A stretch of 64,000 nt of DNA from an uncultured Alphaproteobacteria bacterium (lineage in GTDB: Bacteria; Pseudomonadota; Alphaproteobacteria; Sphingomonadales; Sphingomonadaceae): the NCBI GenBank assembly GCA_963799985.1, contig CAWCZC010000005.1:448977-512976 (forward strand), read 5' to 3'. The stretch's first letter is position 1. Each line of letters starts with the position of its first letter. Positions 20,525 to 27,617 of this stretch are shown here, piece after piece. Position numbers and translations under genes: made by a program. The notes beneath the pieces were generated by a model. The model made no database searches and was not told where the DNA came from. It worked only from the letters and a program-made list of their open reading frames with translations.

Positions 20525-21586
20525 GTGGAGGGAGGCCGCAGCGCGTATCGCGTGCCGCCGCCGGAGCAGCGTGCGCTCGTCGCTTGGCCCGCGGATTTCG
20601 GCAGCCGCTTCACCGTCTTCGTCGATACCGAGGAGGAGTTCGAGTGGCGCGCGCCGTTCAGCCGCGACGCGCATTCGACCCGCGCGATCGCCGCTCTGCC
20701 GACGGCACACCGCCGCTTCGCCGATCGGGAAGTGCCGCTGACCTATCTGGTCGATTATCCGGTCGCGACCGCGCTGGAAGCGGTGGAGGTGCTGCGTGGT
20801 CTGATCGCGGACGGGAGATCGGCGATCGGCGCGCAGCTTCATCCCTGGGTCAATCCACCGTTCGATGAGGAATTGAACGGATACAACAGCTTCTGCGGGA
20901 ATCTGCCGAAATCGTTGGAGGCGGCCAAGCTGGCCACGCTGACCGAGATGATCGCTGGGAGCTTCGGGCAGCGGCCGCTCGCGTTCCGGGCCGGACGCTA
21001 CGGGATCGGGCCGGAGACGCTCGGGCTGCTGAGGGCGCAGGGATACCGTGTCGATACCTCGATCCGGGCATTCTATGACTATGGCGCGGAGGGCGGCCCC
21101 GATTTCCGTGGTGTGGGCGACGCCGCGTTCCGCACGGGCCCCGACGGCGCGATCCTCGAGCTGCCGTTCTCGACCGTGTTCACCGGCCGGATGCGCGGGC
21201 GCGGGGAACCGCTCTACCGCGCGCTCGGGCGGATCCCGCGCGCGCGGGGCGTGGCGGCGCGGCTCGGGCTGCTTTCGCGGGTGTCGCTCACGCCCGAGGA
21301 CATGCCGCTCGGCGATGCGATCGAGGCGATCCGAGTCGCAGCGGGCGAGGGACAGCGGCTGCTCAATCTCGCCTTCCACTCGCCGTCGCTCGAGCCGGGG
21401 CACACACCCTACGTCCGCGACGCGGCCGATCTGGCGGCGTTCTGGCGCTGGTGGGATGCGGTGCTCGACCTGCTCGACCGGTCCGGCATCCGCCCCGCCG
21501 CGCTGGGCGCGGTGATCGCCGCGGCCGACGCCGCTTGCGGGGCAGGCGCGGCTTCCGCTACTGCGACGGCCGCTGGGGGCCTGTAG
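20525..21586 (+). CDS. WalW-like polysaccharide deacetylase family protein
   Basis: VDTEEEFEW, IGAQLHPWVNPP, FRAGRYG, FHSPSLEPGHTPY. The stop codon lies inside the tRNA 5' end. Confidence 0.85.
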   Translation: MEGGRSAYRVPPPEQRALVAWPADFGSRFTVFVDTEEEFEWRAPFSRDAHSTRAIAALPTAHRRFADREVPLTYLVDYPVATALEAVEVLRGLIADGRSAIGAQLHPWVNPPFDEELNGYNSFCGNLPKSLEAAKLATLTEMIAGSFGQRPLAFRAGRYGIGPETLGLLRAQGYRVDTSIRAFYDYGAEGGPDFRGVGDAAFRTGPDGAILELPFSTVFTGRMRGRGEPLYRALGRIPRARGVAARLGLLSRVSLTPEDMPLGDAIEAIRVAAGEGQRLLNLAFHSPSLEPGHTPYVRDAADLAAFWRWWDAVLDLLDRSGIRPAALGAVIAAADAACGAGAASATATAAGGL

Positions 21587-21653
21587 CTCAACTGGTTAGA
21601 GCTGGCCGCTCATAACGGCTAGGTTGCGGGTTCAAGTCCTGCCGGGCCCACCA
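21577..21653 (+). tRNA. tRNA-Ile2 (CAT anticodon, lysidine type); elongator Met less likely
   Basis: GGGCCTG/CGGGCCC acceptor stem, GCCG-CTCATAA-CGGC anticodon arm, GGTTCAAGTCC T loop, ACCA end. Confidence 0.9.
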
Positions 21654-22275
21654 GCCGCCCCTCCGGGGCGGCTGAGCCCCCCAAAAGCGTGAAAGGTAAA
21701 GAGGTTACGGCGGTTCTAAAGCCACCATTTCGCGCATATTGAAGGCGGTCGGCAAAGGCCAATTTCATGACCAATCGGCGCAGATCAAAACGTCCAGAAA
21801 GCCAGAGTTTCTGCGGGTTTGCGAGGAAGTCGAGGGCGGTTCTAAAGCCGGTCGTGAAGTCGCCGCGTGGCTTAACAGTATTCTCCATGCGCTCACGTAA
21901 CGCGACCTTGCGGCGCTCAAGCTCGCCGATGCGTTCCTCGTAGGCAGCAATCACCACAGGCAGTTTCGCTTCCACAATGCGATCTACAAGCTGCGCGACA
22001 TCGCGGTCGATCCCGGCAAGCTCTGCCCTGATCGTGGCGGCTTCCTCTTTCGCCCGCGCAGCGCAGCGATCCCATGCCCTGCGGAACGAGTCCCGCGCGT
22101 ACGCAAAGAGCGAGTGGCTTGGGCGCAGCGTGTCGAGTAGTTCGGCGAACTCCCGCTCCATCTAATCGCGGCGGATCGACTTGCCGTACTCGCCGCAGTC
22201 TTTGGTCACGCAAAGATAGTACGGGTAGCTCCGGGTGCGACCCTTGGACCAGCAGCCATAGAGCGCCTTGCCGCA
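21619..22275 (-). pseudogene. Large serine recombinase, C-terminal half only (zinc ribbon plus coiled coil); in-frame TAG at 22162-22164
   Basis: CGKALYGCWSKGRTRSYPYYLCVTKDC...SIRRD*MEREF...coiled coil...GFRTA. Catalytic domain absent; reads into the tRNA antisense. Confidence 0.85.
21648..21655 (+). repeat. Left att core CCACCAGC
   Basis: Overlaps the tRNA ACCA end; repeated at 27487-27494; 16/20 identity over the 20 nt ending at each copy. Confidence 0.75.
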
Positions 22276-22349
22276 TGATGTATCCTCCCCGGTAGCTCGA
22301 AACCTTTGCCAAAAAGCTGGGCGCGAGACGAAGGCCGATTGTTCCAGTA

Positions 22350-24365
22350 TCAAGACCTCTTTTCCCTATCGTATTCCCCAATCGCGTCTATCGCAAACCG
22401 CAGTTTCTTATGCAGAAGTAGCTGCTCGAAGTGAATCCGGTGGTGAAAGCGCCCTCCGACCGGCCTCGAACCGGTAGAATGCAAAATTTGATCCTCCGGC
22501 TGCTCGGCCGACAAATCCACGTAAATCCCGCCAGAAAAGGACTCGCCCTTAAGCCCGTAAATATACTCGACATCTCGGTTCTCCTTGTCGAAGAGCAGAC
22601 TCGGTACCTGCTGCTCCCACTCCTCCTTAGGCACCTCGGCAAGCTCTGGATGTTCGTCTTTTAGCAGCGATCTGTATGACTCTTCCCTGTCTAGCTCATC
22701 TTCCACCGGGTTGAGATAAAAGAGAGGAATGCGCAGGGCGTCGTGCATCTTGCAGAACGACTTTCCGTCTTCGGAGCACAATATCTCTTTGCTCCACAGC
22801 AGTACCCTCGCGATCTCAATTGACGTCTCATCCCCGGCATCTCGTACTTCTACGTGAGTACCATCTCCAAGACGTGAATTAGACCTAAAATAGGTGTGCG
22901 TGGTACGCTTTATGTTCGCTAGCGCAATCTTTATCGCTTCGTCGACAAGCGGTGTCACTCGCAGGGTCCAACGGTTAGTGTCGGCATCCAACGCCTTCGC
23001 AACATAGCGGGGTATCTGCAAACAAAAATAGTAAAACACCAGGGGGTCGAGCCATGCATCGAAAGCCTGCACGTCAACGGCGTAGATCCTATTGGCCTTC
23101 GACACCCAATCGCCCAGATCGTTCACGCGATCAGCGTGCAGGGTAGGAGGAAGCTCAAAGTTCTTGAAGAAGCTCGCGAGTTTCTCGTGAGCCTTCTGTG
23201 CGTTGTGGCGCCTCGAATTCTCCGCCCTCGAAGAGCGGGCCTCATGGATGGCGAGGTGCCGGTTCATTGCCTGCTGGTTCCGCTCGACAAAGAATGTACC
23301 GAGCGGACCCGCGGACTTAATCTTTCCTTTCTCGCTCTCGAACTTTGTTGTGCGGCAAAGCCACCCGTCGGTCTCGCCCGACGCTGCCGACAGGAGCATC
23401 GGCTCAAACTCAAGGGAGGTAAAACAATCCTGTGTGTCGCCGTAGCTTCCGAATGTTCCACCAATCAATGAAAAAATGCCCCATCCAAAGTTCTCGTTAT
23501 CAACCGGATATTGCAAGACCATATCGTGACTATGGACATGACCTGACAGAACGACGTGAACCCGCTGATTCGAAAGCTCCGCGCGCAACAAACCGGCGTT
23601 AATGAGCATCGGAAATTGATCGACATCCTGCGTGGCCGCCGAGTGAATCGGATGATGGACGACGCAGATCTTCAGCGCATGGCGTGGAATAACGGGGGCA
23701 TCGGCCAGCCCTCTTTTGAGTTCCTCCGGATTGACAAAGCCAGGATCTAATCTTGCGATCGCCTTAAGTGTGCTTGCAGCGTCGGAGCGGCTGTCCGGCT
23801 GCAACAGCTTCCGCACTTCCTCGATAGCAGGTTCATTGACATTGCCAGCTATGCCGCACGAGTCGACGCAGTAAAAAGCAACTGGCCCGGTGCGATCGGT
23901 ATGCAAATTGTGGACGGTGACACCAGTATATTTATTGCCCTCTAGCTTTTGGTGGGGCGTGATATATTCCCCGAAAAGACTGTTAAACTGTTCTCTAGCG
24001 AACATTCTTCCAGTATCATCGACGGCGTCGTATGAGTAGTCGTGATTTCCCGGTACAATGACGATACGCTCACGTGCGCGCGCGTTGGTGTCGCCATCCC
24101 AGATAGATCTCAAAGCGTCCCTTATTCCTTCGATAAATCTTTGAGCCTGCATCAACTCTTGAAACGAACCAAAACTGGTTAAGTCGCCACTTATTACAAC
24201 GAAATCGGGAGCTGTTGTCTTATTTAACGCTGACAGATGCGCTAGATACTGATCGTAGACGGAGAGCGGCGCGGGTATTCCGCGCGACAAGCCAGAGTTG
24301 ATGTGCCCTGCTGCCTTGCTCAAAGGGCCGAAGTGAATATCGGAAAGATGGTGAATGCGGATCAT
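22350..24365 (-). CDS. Calcineurin-like metallophosphoesterase with ~300-aa unknown C-terminal domain
   Basis: All five metal motifs present: SDIHFG, SGDLT, PGNHD, HH, GHVH. Confidence 0.9.
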   Translation of the reverse strand: MIRIHHLSDIHFGPLSKAAGHINSGLSRGIPAPLSVYDQYLAHLSALNKTTAPDFVVISGDLTSFGSFQELMQAQRFIEGIRDALRSIWDGDTNARARERIVIVPGNHDYSYDAVDDTGRMFAREQFNSLFGEYITPHQKLEGNKYTGVTVHNLHTDRTGPVAFYCVDSCGIAGNVNEPAIEEVRKLLQPDSRSDAASTLKAIARLDPGFVNPEELKRGLADAPVIPRHALKICVVHHPIHSAATQDVDQFPMLINAGLLRAELSNQRVHVVLSGHVHSHDMVLQYPVDNENFGWGIFSLIGGTFGSYGDTQDCFTSLEFEPMLLSAASGETDGWLCRTTKFESEKGKIKSAGPLGTFFVERNQQAMNRHLAIHEARSSRAENSRRHNAQKAHEKLASFFKNFELPPTLHADRVNDLGDWVSKANRIYAVDVQAFDAWLDPLVFYYFCLQIPRYVAKALDADTNRWTLRVTPLVDEAIKIALANIKRTTHTYFRSNSRLGDGTHVEVRDAGDETSIEIARVLLWSKEILCSEDGKSFCKMHDALRIPLFYLNPVEDELDREESYRSLLKDEHPELAEVPKEEWEQQVPSLLFDKENRDVEYIYGLKGESFSGGIYVDLSAEQPEDQILHSTGSRPVGGRFHHRIHFEQLLLHKKLRFAIDAIGEYDREKRS

Positions 24366-24374
24366 CCTGGGACC

Positions 24375-25583
24375 TTACACCGAGATGTCATGCAGGACGT
24401 TGTTCCGCGAAATAAGCTCCCGGGGACGGGTTGCGCCAAGAAAGCGCATACTCATGCTGGCGCAATAGGCACCGGCGTTGCTGAAGGCCAGCCGGTCCCC
24501 CGGCTGTAGATCAGGCAGCATACAGCCGAGGTGAAGCAGATCACCCGAGTAGGTCGTGCTTCCAGCGATCATGTATTTCCTGGCCACCGCGTCGCCCTCG
24601 CGGCCGACTACCGATACGGGGTGCTGTTCGGACGCCTTTTCGTAGAAGATAGGTCGGGGGAATGAGCAGGCTTCCCCGTCGCAGATCGCTATGTTGCCGT
24701 GGTCCGTCTCCACGATGTCTAGCACCGTCGTAAGGAACACTCCGGCGCGGGCAACCACGGCGCGGCCGATCTCGAAAATCACTCGCGGCCTGTCTCCGCC
24801 ACTTTCAACTGAGCGAGCAACACCCTCCAGCACCCTCTGCCAGTCCTGCCAGAACGGTTGGTCGAGCGGCACCTGGAACGTTGACGGCAGGCCACCTCCG
24901 AAATCAAGGATCGAGATTCCGGGTAGCCGATCTATGATTTCGAGAATCGACTGATAGGCTGATTGAAGCGGGCGCGCGGTTTCAATGTCGGTGCCCGGAT
25001 ATATATGCAGGCCGACCGGTTTCACTCCCTCCCGCCCGGACAAGTTCCAAGCCTGAGCCACTTGCTCGCGAGGCAAACCAATGCGCAGCCCCGCCGCATT
25101 GACGTGGCGCGTTGCATGCGACCGTGTCGACCCGTCTTGCCGTTGCGTTTGGACCCTCAGCCCGATCTGGTTATCGGGAAGTTGTTCGGCGAGATAGAGA
25201 AATTGGCGGATCGAGTTAGCGAACACGATCGTACCGGAAACCCGCCGGACCAGCTCAACTGCCTCAGGAGAAACCGCCGAGGGAGCGAAGACTACTTTCT
25301 GATCGCCAGCCTCCAAATCGTAGATCCTCGCCAAGTGATAATGTGACCCGGCGAAGAATCCAAAACCCTCCTCTTGCACGATCCGCAGGATCTCAGGATT
25401 GTCGTTGGCCATCAGCGCGAAGAACGCCTCAAAGCTCCTAGGCATTAGCCGAGTGATAGCGGCGCTGTCGCCGCGGATCGCCTCCTCGGAGTACAGGTAG
25501 CAGGGTGTCGTGACCTGCTTTACCAAATCGGCCAGTTCGTCGGCCTCGAATGGGCCGGTTCTCTGGAATGTTCCGGGGGCCAT
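24375..25583 (-). CDS. Diaminopimelate/ornithine decarboxylase-fold (PLP fold III) protein with non-canonical active site
   Basis: TPCYLY, FALMAN (usually YAxKAN), LDFGGG, EIGR, GSTTYSGD, AGAY. Confidence 0.88.
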   Translation of the reverse strand: MAPGTFQRTGPFEADELADLVKQVTTPCYLYSEEAIRGDSAAITRLMPRSFEAFFALMANDNPEILRIVQEEGFGFFAGSHYHLARIYDLEAGDQKVVFAPSAVSPEAVELVRRVSGTIVFANSIRQFLYLAEQLPDNQIGLRVQTQRQDGSTRSHATRHVNAAGLRIGLPREQVAQAWNLSGREGVKPVGLHIYPGTDIETARPLQSAYQSILEIIDRLPGISILDFGGGLPSTFQVPLDQPFWQDWQRVLEGVARSVESGGDRPRVIFEIGRAVVARAGVFLTTVLDIVETDHGNIAICDGEACSFPRPIFYEKASEQHPVSVVGREGDAVARKYMIAGSTTYSGDLLHLGCMLPDLQPGDRLAFSNAGAYCASMSMRFLGATRPRELISRNNVLHDISV

Positions 25584-26236
25584 CACTCCGACACTAGTCT
25601 CGTGATGATAAGGTGCCGGCCCTTGCCGCCACTCTTTCGACTGATCGTAATGTCACCGACCTCGGCGATCTCGCGCAGGTGCACGCCCCCGCAGGGAACG
25701 ACGACGCCCTTACAACGCCAGTACCGGAGTTTACGGTCCTGGTCGTCCTCGGAGGTCTCGATCGCCCCACCTTCGTCTATGAATGCCTGGCACTTCTTGG
25801 TTATGCGGGTGATCAGTTCCGGAGGCATCGCCCCTTCGTACTCGTAGGTGCACTTGTCGCCGGATTCCGTCAGGAAGTTCCCTACCCGTGCCAGTTCTCC
25901 TAGTTCAGAATACAGGTAGTGCTCCATCAGGTGCGACGCGGAGTGAAGGCGCATAATCCGGAACCTGCGATTCCAGTTCAGATTTACCATGACCCGCTGG
26001 CCTGGCACGATCGACGCGGGATCGCTGACCAGGTGGGCGATCCTCGCTTCTCCATCCATTAGCGTATCGCTAACCTGCGCATCGCCGATGAAGCCGGTGT
26101 CTCCAGGGCACCCACCGCCGCGAGGCGAGAATGCGCTCCGGTCCAGATAAACCCGGTTATCGTGCACGGAAAGCACCGTCGCCTCGAACTGCGACAGGTA
26201 CGGGTCGTCGTAATAAAGAATCCGGGTTTTCGTCAC
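25583..26236 (-). CDS. AlaX-type alanyl-tRNA editing (deacylase) protein
   Basis: YYDDPYL, GGGCPGDTG, MRLHSASH (HxxxH), PCGGVH (CxxxH). GTG start inferred; TGATG overlap with the next gene. Confidence 0.9.
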   Translation of the reverse strand: MTKTRILYYDDPYLSQFEATVLSVHDNRVYLDRSAFSPRGGGCPGDTGFIGDAQVSDTLMDGEARIAHLVSDPASIVPGQRVMVNLNWNRRFRIMRLHSASHLMEHYLYSELGELARVGNFLTESGDKCTYEYEGAMPPELITRITKKCQAFIDEGGAIETSEDDQDRKLRYWRCKGVVVPCGGVHLREIAEVGDITISRKSGGKGRHLIITRLVSE

Positions 26237-26298
26237 TAAGGCTACCTGCTCACCAACGGGCCAATGGACGCGGCCGGCCAGCGCTCGCTGACAGTCAG

Positions 26299-26326
26299 AT
26301 TTTATCCTAATCCGATCAAGACGCAA
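26299..26326 (-). promoter_or_regulatory. Putative sigma70 promoter for the cargo operon
   Basis: TTGCGT-N16-TAAAAT about 60 bp upstream of the inferred alaX start. Confidence 0.45.
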
Positions 26327-26357
26327 TGCCGACCCGAGGATAGAAATGGCCTGTGAG

Positions 26358-26617
26358 GTGGTTGGTGGATAGGGCGATCGGCAAGACCCGGCATATTGGC
26401 GCGACCCCGTACACCTCGCGATGCACGTCGATGATTAACACCATCACCTCGCTAGTCAGACGCTCGAAGGTGGAGCTCCGCCATCGCAAAATATGCGGAC
26501 GCCTTGCGCAGGTTCTCATTGGCCCGGCGCAGCTCCCGGTTTTCACGCTCCGGCGCCTTCATCCGCTCAGCGACATCGCTCGGCAGACCGGCACTCGCAC
26601 CGTTGCCGACTTCGTCG
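26358..26617 (-). mobile_element. IS3-family transposase remnant (orfA end / orfB start)
   Basis: ERMKAPERENRELRRANENLRKASAYFAMAEL followed by IDVHREVYGVAPICRVLPIALST. Confidence 0.88.
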
Positions 26618-26892
26618 ACCAGAGGGATAGGCGCAGCGCGGCGCTGAAGGCCAGTCCGACATTCCGCGACTTGCGCGTCATCCCAGTCGACAATCCGCCA
26701 TCTTTATGAGTCGACGATCGCTGAACAAACGACCGTTTTCGGGATCTGTTTTCGGCTGCACGAATGACCGATATTGGGGCGCAAGCGGTGAAAACCGCTC
26801 ACCTCATTAAGTCACTGAAAAGAAATAATACTAGATGCAACAAAATTGCCGATAGTGTTGCATCGCCGTAGATTCAGACCGTCGCTGACGGG

Positions 26893-27138
26893 ATGGAACT
26901 CATGCGGAAACGGCTTGCTATCGCGGCAATCGCGCTTGCCGCCTCGTCGCTCGCGACGCCCTCGGCTATGGGCCAGCAAACGCGCCCGGCCCCCGTTTCG
27001 GAAATAAGCGTTCCGCTTCGCGACGCTCGAACGGCGGGCGCTAGATCGGTGCGCTTCGCGGCGGCGCAGTTCACGAAGACGGAGCCGGTGGTGGTTCTGC
27101 TCCTCGGTGGGCGGCGCGGGCAAAGAGGCGGGATTTGA
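26893..27138 (+). pseudogene. Small exported protein, probably 3'-truncated
   Basis: Signal peptide MRKRLAIAAIALAASSLATPSAMG; runs head-on into the mobC remnant. Confidence 0.5.
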
Positions 27139-27246
27139 CGTAGGCTCCAAGCGCCAGTCCGCCCGCGTCGCGCTCAAGCTGGGCGCGCTCTGCCGCCGAC
27201 AGCCGGATGCAGAACGGCGAGGGCCCTTGGGTTTGGACCCTGACAT
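27110..27246 (-). pseudogene. MobC-like ribbon-helix-helix protein, N-terminal fragment
   Basis: PSPFCIRLSAAERAQLERDAGGLALGAYVKSRLF; frameshifted from the ATG at 27246 and truncated. Confidence 0.7.
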
Positions 27247-27343
27247 GGGATCGGAATTCGACAAACGACAACACGCCGCATCCGGCAGGGTGCGAGGTAT
27301 GCGCCTCGGTTAGAGGTGAGACGGGGGTTAGGAAAAGCGCCGG

Positions 27344-27493
27344 TCAGGGGCCGGATGGTTCCGGCGGCTCTGGATCAGGGCCGAGAAATTCGGCAGGAAC
27401 GTCCCGCAGGTTGGATTCCCAATCGGCAAGCGTTCGAAATAGCTCGTCCGAGTCGAACGGCGGGTTCGAGGATTGTCCCTCGGGGACCACCAG
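27344..27493 (-). other. Displaced C-terminal tail of the serine recombinase (joined only in the excised circle)
   Basis: [49 protein letters not shown] in the same codon phase across the att core as the recombinase's LVGPAGLEPAT*. Confidence 0.7.
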
Positions 27494-27494
27494 C
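27487..27494 (+). repeat. Right att core CCACCAGC
   Basis: GTCCCTCGGGGA-CCACCAGC versus the tRNA end GTCCTGCCGGGC-CCACCAGC. Confidence 0.75.
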
Positions 27495-27540
27495 GGCGCC
27501 CTTGTGCCTCTTGCCGAGAAGCCCTAGGCGGCATCCGCGT

Positions 27541-27617
<77 letters not shown>

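Follow-up and report, generated by a model that had tools for sequence, protein, structure and literature searches.

In the ssrA islands of Dehalococcoides, the serine recombinase gene dsiB (CcrB-like) always overlaps attL at its 3′ end, and the authors remarked that full function of the enzyme might be confined to the form encoded by the circle (McMurdie et al. 2011, PMC3146451). Two systems based on tyrosine recombinases carry the recombination site within the integrase gene itself. In Mx8, attP is located within the integrase's coding sequence, and integration converts intP into intX, which has a new 3′ end and specifies an altered but active enzyme (PMC6070905; also PMC4383910). In the SSV-type archaeal integrases, the site lies in the integrase ORF, and the gene is split on integration (PMC7253208). 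We now report that a 64,000-nucleotide stretch of DNA from an uncultured member of the Sphingomonadaceae (assembly GCA_963799985.1, contig CAWCZC010000005.1, positions 448,977 to 512,976; hereafter the window) contains the remains of an island whose relatives encode a large serine recombinase (LSR). In this family attP appears to lie inside the LSR gene, insertion appears to take place at the CCA end of a tRNA gene, and the C-terminus of the enzyme appears to be swapped on integration, a structural account that rests on sequence comparisons and to which we assign a probability of about 0.8. An earlier examination of the window, made from its letters without database searches (the sequence-only reading), had proposed an att site inside the recombinase gene and an exchange of the C-terminus on integration, with Mx8 and SSV as precedents among the tyrosine integrases, and had suggested that the exchange may act as a switch of directionality or stability. 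The precedents agree with PMC6070905 and PMC7253208, and the proposed structure is supported by intact relatives, whereas the assumption of a working recombinase in the window is not.

Judging from their description, the DsiB islands appear to be the closest published case (PMC3146451): there, too, an LSR-type gene reads into the antisense strand of the target tDNA (a tmRNA gene), and the elements are integrative mobilizable elements (IMEs). The DsiB islands differ from the present family in their ssrA target, their 20-bp repeat, an inferred crossover in the T-loop, and the presence of a second small serine recombinase, DsiA; moreover, the conserved distal tail, the 5-bp shift of a motif in attP, and the assembly of an int–mobC–relaxase unit that we document below are not among the features described for them (PMC3146451). 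Mx8 resembles the family in having attP inside the integrase gene and a C-terminus that is swapped on integration, but its enzyme is a tyrosine recombinase of unrelated fold and chemistry, the element is a phage rather than an IME, and its att architecture is different. Unlike the SSV tyrosine recombinases, whose gene is split into two inactive parts, members of the present family keep an almost full-length enzyme after integration. The relatives carry serine-recombinase and not tyrosine-recombinase domains, and they are therefore not members of families of the Mx8 or SSV kind.

The island in the window (21654-27494) is of low GC content (0.49-0.62, as compared with 0.67-0.75 in the flanks) and sits between a tRNA gene with a CAT anticodon and the gene for tRNA-Pro. 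The features that define its two ends are as follows:

21577..21653, plus strand: tRNA with a CAT anticodon, the integration target (called with ARAGORN, as was the tRNA-Pro below)
21648..21655: common core of attL, CCACCAGC, consisting of the last 6 nt of the tRNA and 2 further nt (read directly and from the cores of related elements)
21619..22353, minus strand: 3′ remnant of an LSR gene, with the zinc-ribbon end, the coiled coil, and the C-terminal extension
27344..27493, minus strand: detached recombinase tail, 48 in-phase codons and a stop (TGA, 27344-27346), acidic and bearing the family motif
27457..27494: attR, with the P arm of the element, a T-loop-like motif (27457-27467), and the core (27487-27494)
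27495..27617, plus strand: host spacer (46 nt) and tRNA-Pro(TGG) (27541-27617), the right flank of the empty site

The host genome has three CAT tRNAs, and, because the other two are initiator-like and elongator-like, respectively, the target at 21577..21653 is probably, by elimination, tRNA-Ile2. As the sequence-only reading had noticed, the recombinase frame at the left end (minus strand, 22161 to 21619) passes through the 8-nt core and terminates in GRLV-GPAGLEPAT and a stop. The final 11 codons of this frame read the T-arm and acceptor of the tRNA in antisense; conversely, the T-arm and the 3′ strand of the acceptor form the B arm of attL. The second copy of CCACCAGC, at the right end of the island, is offset from the first by 5839 nt (1 mod 3), a value equal to the shift between the left and right frames, and thus the two copies are in the same codon phase, again as had been claimed. 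Joining position 27494 to 21655, as in circularization, would lengthen the left frame by 48 codons. The right frame had been described as a start-less frame of 50 codons (27493-27344). The frame itself stands, with 48 codons and the TGA, but "start-less" does not strictly apply, since a GTG occurs at 27490 and the reading continues without a stop for 10 further codons into the host spacer.

The remnant has 54 homologs of 357-652 aa, most of them 510-550 aa, which carry the resolvase (PF00239), recombinase (PF07508), and zinc-ribbon (PF13408) domains according to precomputed Pfam assignments. Members of the family are present in 36 of 401 genomes of the same order, and the family as a whole is spread over the Alpha-, Beta-, and Gammaproteobacteria. 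A tblastn search of plasmid and phage collections with the remnant returned six weak plasmid matches and no phage match, and hence no free replicon form. Nearly all of the homologs end in residues of the G-[LFI]-E-P type, which represent the antisense of a tRNA T-loop read in one phase. Indeed, in 28 of 30 intact loci of the same order the recombinase gene overlaps the 3′ end of a convergent tRNA gene. The targets are of seven types (Arg, Thr, Met/Ile2, Ala, Phe, Leu, and Ser), and the last codon of the body that is encoded by the element was xTG over CCA in every locus tested (26 of 26). Near-identical elements reside in tRNA-Arg(ACG) and tRNA-Arg(TCG), in Halioxenophilus sp. WMMB6 (NZ_JAWMQR010000006.1) and in a Pseudomonadales metagenome-assembled genome, which indicates that the target is recognized via shared features of the T-arm and acceptor and not as one particular tRNA. 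The integrated recombinases of the ACG and TCG elements end in different tRNA-derived residues, whereas their distal tails are the same; the short end is thus host-derived and the long tail borne by the element.

To map distal ends, we examined, for each of ten intact members of the same order, 40 kb of sequence on the side of the element. Seven of them have a frame with the motif SNxLFxxLxDWExxL at a distance of 17-39 kb, on the recombinase strand and in phase, and in these seven the frame begins at a 6-13-nt copy of the tRNA CCA end. Of the other three, two (G408, at 10.7 kb, and G271, at about 42 kb) had their distal ends located by a profile built from the tails, which also found the tail of a second element in G253; these three tails lie on the correct strand and are in phase where checked. 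The first G253 element, which occupies a tRNA-Ala gene, yielded no distal tail in either the motif or the profile search. Two gammaproteobacterial elements likewise have an in-phase distal tail, 28-31 kb away. An in-phase tail is present in 13 of the 13 elements that were mapped to both ends, and the expectation of the sequence-only reading, that relatives would carry an in-phase SSN..LF..LADW tail at the distal end, is borne out. Meanwhile, the profile of the relatives' tails (A1) recovered the tail in the window from a whole-genome search at E=2e-16, and the window tail fits those of the family apart from a small insertion. Within the motif block, pairs of tails differ on average by 0.44, 0.27, and 0.57 at codon positions 1, 2, and 3, respectively, a pattern that points to selection on the protein and not on a DNA site. 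Early guesses of distal ends from short repeats (for G027, G031, G300, G087, G253, G271, and G408) turned out to be wrong or unsupported; the motif or profile search gave the true distal end for six of the seven, the tail found in G253 being that of the second element.

The tail profile also retrieved the unsplit end of the gene. Two sequences of 141 aa each, P0060 (from Logan) and its cluster mate P0070 (from ENA, in two contigs), have the C-terminal body of the recombinase running without a stop into the tail, just as is predicted by joining the two ends of the Halioxenophilus element. Together with the 48-codon extension calculated for the window, this agrees with the earlier claim that circularization fuses the two frames, giving a long acidic tail in place of a short, tRNA-encoded one. 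The near-identical elements in the two tRNA-Arg genes (L079/L103 and L081/L102) each have a recombinase end 96% identical to P0060, and their tail is the same. Two other apparent long unsplit matches, L101 and L126, proved to be ordinary attR tails with a spurious extension. As a separate observation, the tail motif resembles an internal helix that follows the coiled coil (FRTALDFL in the body of the window remnant versus FRTLADWE in the tail; 21800-21850 versus 27400-27450). MAFFT placed six divergent tails on this internal segment (alignment A2), and blastp gave the same pairing. The likeness could reflect helix mimicry or chance similarity between two amphipathic helices and is too weak to build on.

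The att sites themselves have the anatomy of LSR sites. The cores of ten related elements are 6-13 nt long and all straddle the CCA end, with an intersection of -5..+1 relative to the terminal A, and a T-loop-like motif lies to the left of the distal core in the arm of the element. When the 11-nt T-arm segment of the tRNA was slid along the distal arm, the best match was found at +5 bp in all ten elements, including that of the window, where 9 of the 11 positions agree. In the Listeria integrase, the motif recognized by the zinc ribbon occupies positions 16-24 in the attP half-sites and lies 5 bp nearer the center in attB, and the same 5-bp shift between attP and attB is seen in other serine integrases (Rutherford et al., PMC3783163). 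Because the +5 shift conforms to this rule, the 5-nt "insertion" at the right end of the island in the window marks an attP arm rather than a decayed tRNA end. A short core and a motif whose place in attP is 5 bp further from the crossover than it is in attB are thus found in the window as well as in its relatives. The family shares these two features, and its set of domains, with the large serine integrases of phages (Listeria A118/LI, phiC31, Bxb1, and SPbeta). The phage enzymes, in contrast, have protein genes or intergenic sites as targets and rely on a separate recombination directionality factor (RDF) for their direction. To our knowledge, attP in these phages lies outside the int coding sequence.

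Excision of the island would leave a spacer of 48 nt between the tRNA-CAT and tRNA-Pro genes, in keeping with the earlier estimate that tRNA-Ile2 would lie about 50 bp from tRNA-Pro in the empty site. In five relatives of the same genus the two genes do lie side by side, tRNA-CAT followed by tRNA-Pro at 41, 94, 206, 374, and 945 nt, and three of the five have CCACCAGC at the end of tRNA-CAT. We also sought the empty sites of two intact elements in relatives by means of their right flanks; in G355 other DNA lay beside the flank, and in G044 the same element was present.

What lies behind the tail is also conserved. In each of the seven mapped elements (7/7), a gene for a MobC/NikA-like protein and then a gene for a MobA/VirD2 relaxase are located directly downstream of the tail and on the same strand (PF05713/PF21983 and PF03432, respectively, by Pfam in the intact relatives). 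The stop of the tail overlaps the ATG of mobC (ATGA) in three of the seven and reaches 1 nt into the ATG in a fourth, and in six the stop of mobC overlaps the start of the relaxase gene. It is on the LSR, MobC/NikA-like, and relaxase genes read at the ends of intact relatives that the designation IME is based. In the integrated state, mobC and the relaxase gene sit at the far end of the element, behind host DNA. Because the tail directly precedes them, excision would assemble a compact int(tail)–mobC–relaxase unit, a likely consequence that the sequence-only reading had not seen.

The comparisons show that attP is placed inside the gene, that the enzyme has two alternative C-termini, that the long tail is conserved as protein, that the sites have the geometry of LSR sites, and which genes follow one another across the joint. 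These findings suggest the following sequence of events. An LSR of this family would insert its element at the CCA end of a tRNA gene by recombining an attP that lies inside its own gene, about 35-50 codons ahead of the stop. The T-arm and acceptor of the tRNA would serve as the left arm of attB, with the same T-loop-like motif placed 5 bp further out in the arm of the element, and the crossover would fall in the terminal ~6 nt of the tRNA, which would thereby be rebuilt exactly. Integration would cut the reading frame of the LSR: the integrated gene would end in a few residues taken from the antisense strand of the tRNA, and the acidic tail, mobC, and the relaxase gene would remain at the opposite end of the element. 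On excision, the pieces would be rejoined into a single int(tail)–mobC–relaxase unit. The excised circle would accordingly make the long enzyme, which would have to be the form that integrates, and would express the mobilization genes by read-through or coupling, whereas the integrated copy would make the short enzyme. Since the mobilization genes would otherwise be useless, the short enzyme would have to be able to excise, alone or with a helper.

As to what the tail does, it may bias the direction of recombination, stabilize the enzyme, or only support integration. The tentative proposal that its presence in the enzyme depends on the state of the element, which would make it a candidate for a bias in direction, is one to which we would give considerably less than even odds. 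Somewhat more doubtful still is the possibility that the swap constitutes a built-in directionality device needing no separate directionality factor. In such a device the long enzyme of the circle would be suited to no reaction but attP x attB and the short, tRNA-tailed enzyme would recombine attL x attR, such that the isoform encoded in each state would be the one that brings that state to an end; excision would also switch on mobC and the relaxase gene. The most durable alternative, which could coexist with both the structural account and the functional proposal, is that assembly of the operon is the main selected consequence, expression of mobC and the relaxase gene being coupled to excision and the tail being an ordinary, constitutive part of an integration-competent enzyme. 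The tight or overlapping junctions between tail and mobC and between mobC and the relaxase gene, and a gene order kept in all seven intact elements, speak for this alternative; the gap between tail and mobC of 109 nt in G384 and 13 nt in G305 speaks against it, as does the conservation of the tail at the level of protein, which it leaves unexplained. On the whole we consider it less likely than not. A comparable arrangement is familiar from elements of the Tn916 type, in which, once the ends are joined, the transfer or mobilization genes come to lie downstream of the promoter and gene located at the opposite end. By analogy, circularization in the present family would place the mobilization genes behind the other end of the element, with coupling of their expression suggested here by the gene junctions; Tn916 differs in having a tyrosine integrase and no protein fused across the joint.

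Several observations weigh against attP lying inside the LSR gene, or against the function proposed for the tail, and they are gathered here. The 8-nt core alone is within chance, with 5 copies of CCACCAGC in the window against 1.9 expected and 5 of 100 shuffles reaching 5, and it is therefore the evidence around the core that supports the boundary of the island. Inspection of the B′ and P′ arms by eye revealed no clear inverted partner for the motif, and the sites thus look asymmetric. The search for an empty Ile2-Pro site, which the sequence-only reading had proposed, succeeded in finding adjacent tRNA genes, but the spacers of the relatives are poorly conserved and too diverged to place the junction to the base; an empty site from the same species was not found, and the exact junction in the window is taken from the family pattern. 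The P0060 contigs could stem from tandem copies rather than from free circles, and no unsplit gene was found in species-representative genomes or in JGI metagenome contigs. Finally, an AlphaFold2 model of P0060 has a mean pLDDT of 60; the tail is predicted, with low confidence, to be helical (residues 114-140, pLDDT ~40-55), and the model says nothing about docking of the tail.

A different objection is that the distal frame is not part of the recombinase at all but is a DNA element (an attP arm, or an oriT upstream of mobC) or a separate small gene starting at the xTG of the core, its phase matching that of the recombinase by coincidence. The core codon is often ATG or GTG and could start a stand-alone peptide, and oriT sites in MOB modules often occupy the position that the region has, just upstream of mobC. 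Coincidence would, however, have to recur in 13 of 13 elements at a chance of one in three each. Nor would a DNA site account for a motif block beyond a 25-bp half-site in which codon position 2 varies least and position 3 most. As for a separate gene, the first base of the core codon in attR is host-derived, so that a start is not guaranteed (the window has CTG), and in P0060 the frame runs uninterrupted from body to tail. We regard this objection as very unlikely to hold.

The weakest alternative is a classical tDNA island, in which the crossover is deeper, the element brings its own 3′ part of the tRNA, the T-arm-like stretch on the right represents the host gene's own end, displaced and decayed, and the C-terminus is the same in both states; the right end does resemble the 3′ part of a tRNA well past the 8-nt core, and an extended repeat of this sort is the usual signature of tyrosine-integrase islands (PMC4383910). 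This can be set aside as having hardly any likelihood, because the likeness includes an exact displacement of 5 bp in 10 of 10 elements, which is a feature of LSR attP sites and not of decay; because the distal arm is the same in elements located in different tRNAs; because exact identity is confined to 6-13 nt around the CCA; and because 4 mismatches in 19 nt and a 5-nt indel in the adjacent 33 nt would seem too much for decay after integration when the neighboring remnant has accumulated one stop and no frameshift over ~730 nt.

We return to the state of the element in the window. The claim that the window holds a serine recombinase gene did not survive: only the 3′ remnant is present, and it is interrupted by an in-frame stop (TAG, 22162-22164). 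In tblastn with the closest homolog, P0001 (542 aa), the window matched residues 302-519 alone (68% identity), the N-terminal ~300 residues being gone, and no catalytic domain (PF00239, with its serine nucleophile) is encoded anywhere in the window. The recombinase fragments had no Pfam match at E<=0.01, PF07508 and PF13408 included; the surviving part is nonetheless 38-69% identical to the matching part of the 54 homologs, which carry PF13408. As judged from its sequence, then, the copy in the window is a pseudogene fragment of an LSR and not a working member of the family. The remaining features of the island are these:

21654..21672, plus strand: perfect hairpin with an 8-bp stem and a 3-nt loop, directly 3′ of the tRNA and inside the coding remnant of the recombinase, on the P′ side of the element (read from the sequence)
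22350..26326, minus strand: intact cargo operon of three genes (Pfam)
26316..26700, minus strand: remnant of an IS3-family transposase, the end of orfA and the start of orfB (minus-strand translations)
27089..27274, minus strand: N-terminal fragment of a MobC/NikA-like relaxosome protein, about 50 of 127-144 residues at 27089-27250 (tblastn with MobC from G384, G031, and G224)

The rest of mobC and the relaxase gene have been deleted. We take the segment at 26316..26700 to be of the IS3 family from its typical orfA/orfB motifs, on established knowledge; its 76-aa ORF had no Pfam match at E<=0.01. The IS3 remnant is cut off at the cargo operon and may be a trace of the deletion that removed the relaxase gene and most of mobC. 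The operon is the sole intact part of the island and encodes an AlaX-like editing-domain protein (weak PF01411/PF07973), a protein with a PLP-decarboxylase fold (PF02784/PF00278), and a 671-aa metallophosphoesterase fusion (PF00149) whose long C-terminal part has no assigned family. With the LSR deprived of its catalytic half and interrupted by a TAG, the relaxase gone, MobC truncated, and an IS3 remnant present, the element is dead, apparently the decayed remnant of an IME, and, because its recombinase is a truncated, stop-containing remnant, no switch can operate in the window.

Some further observations concern individual elements. The hairpin next to the tRNA in the window comes from the element and may stand in for the terminator of tRNA-CAT; G271 has a similar hairpin, with a 7-bp stem, in the same place after its tRNA, and the other elements have none. 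In Maricaulis and its relatives (P0057, P0058, and P0059), the complete tail is preceded, in the ORFs at the distal end, by two or three degenerate copies, one after another, of the core and the start of the tail, which suggests tandem accretion or repeated integration at one tRNA. In the G031 region, a 19-nt copy (89% identical) and a 20-nt exact copy of the 3′ end of tRNA-Arg (L049, ~10752 and 15707; element coordinates 30752 and 35707) lie 7 and 12 kb past the distal end of the serine-integrase element itself and are probably the boundaries of further islands stacked at the same tRNA.

Our search of the literature turned up no description of a tRNA-targeting family of serine integrases with a conserved, swapped tail. 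The evidence added here comprises the +5 shift, the natural unsplit junction, and the mobilization operon that excision would assemble. In 2014 the authors of the Islander paper noted that no targeting of tRNA genes was known for serine integrases (PMC4383910); the family described here corrects the older view that tRNA genes are no target for these enzymes. Programs that find islands by looking for long tRNA repeats beside tyrosine integrases will miss such elements. For the window itself, the island is explained as a dead remnant in which the cargo operon alone is intact. Serine integrases are the main tools for one-way insertion of DNA, and separate directionality factors are regarded as the sole determinants of their direction. 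The present elements form a natural, widespread family in which the enzyme's own end changes with the state of integration and which might offer landing sites, at the ends of tRNA genes, that are present in almost any bacterium. If the change of tail is functional, it would represent a self-contained and testable way of controlling the direction of recombination.

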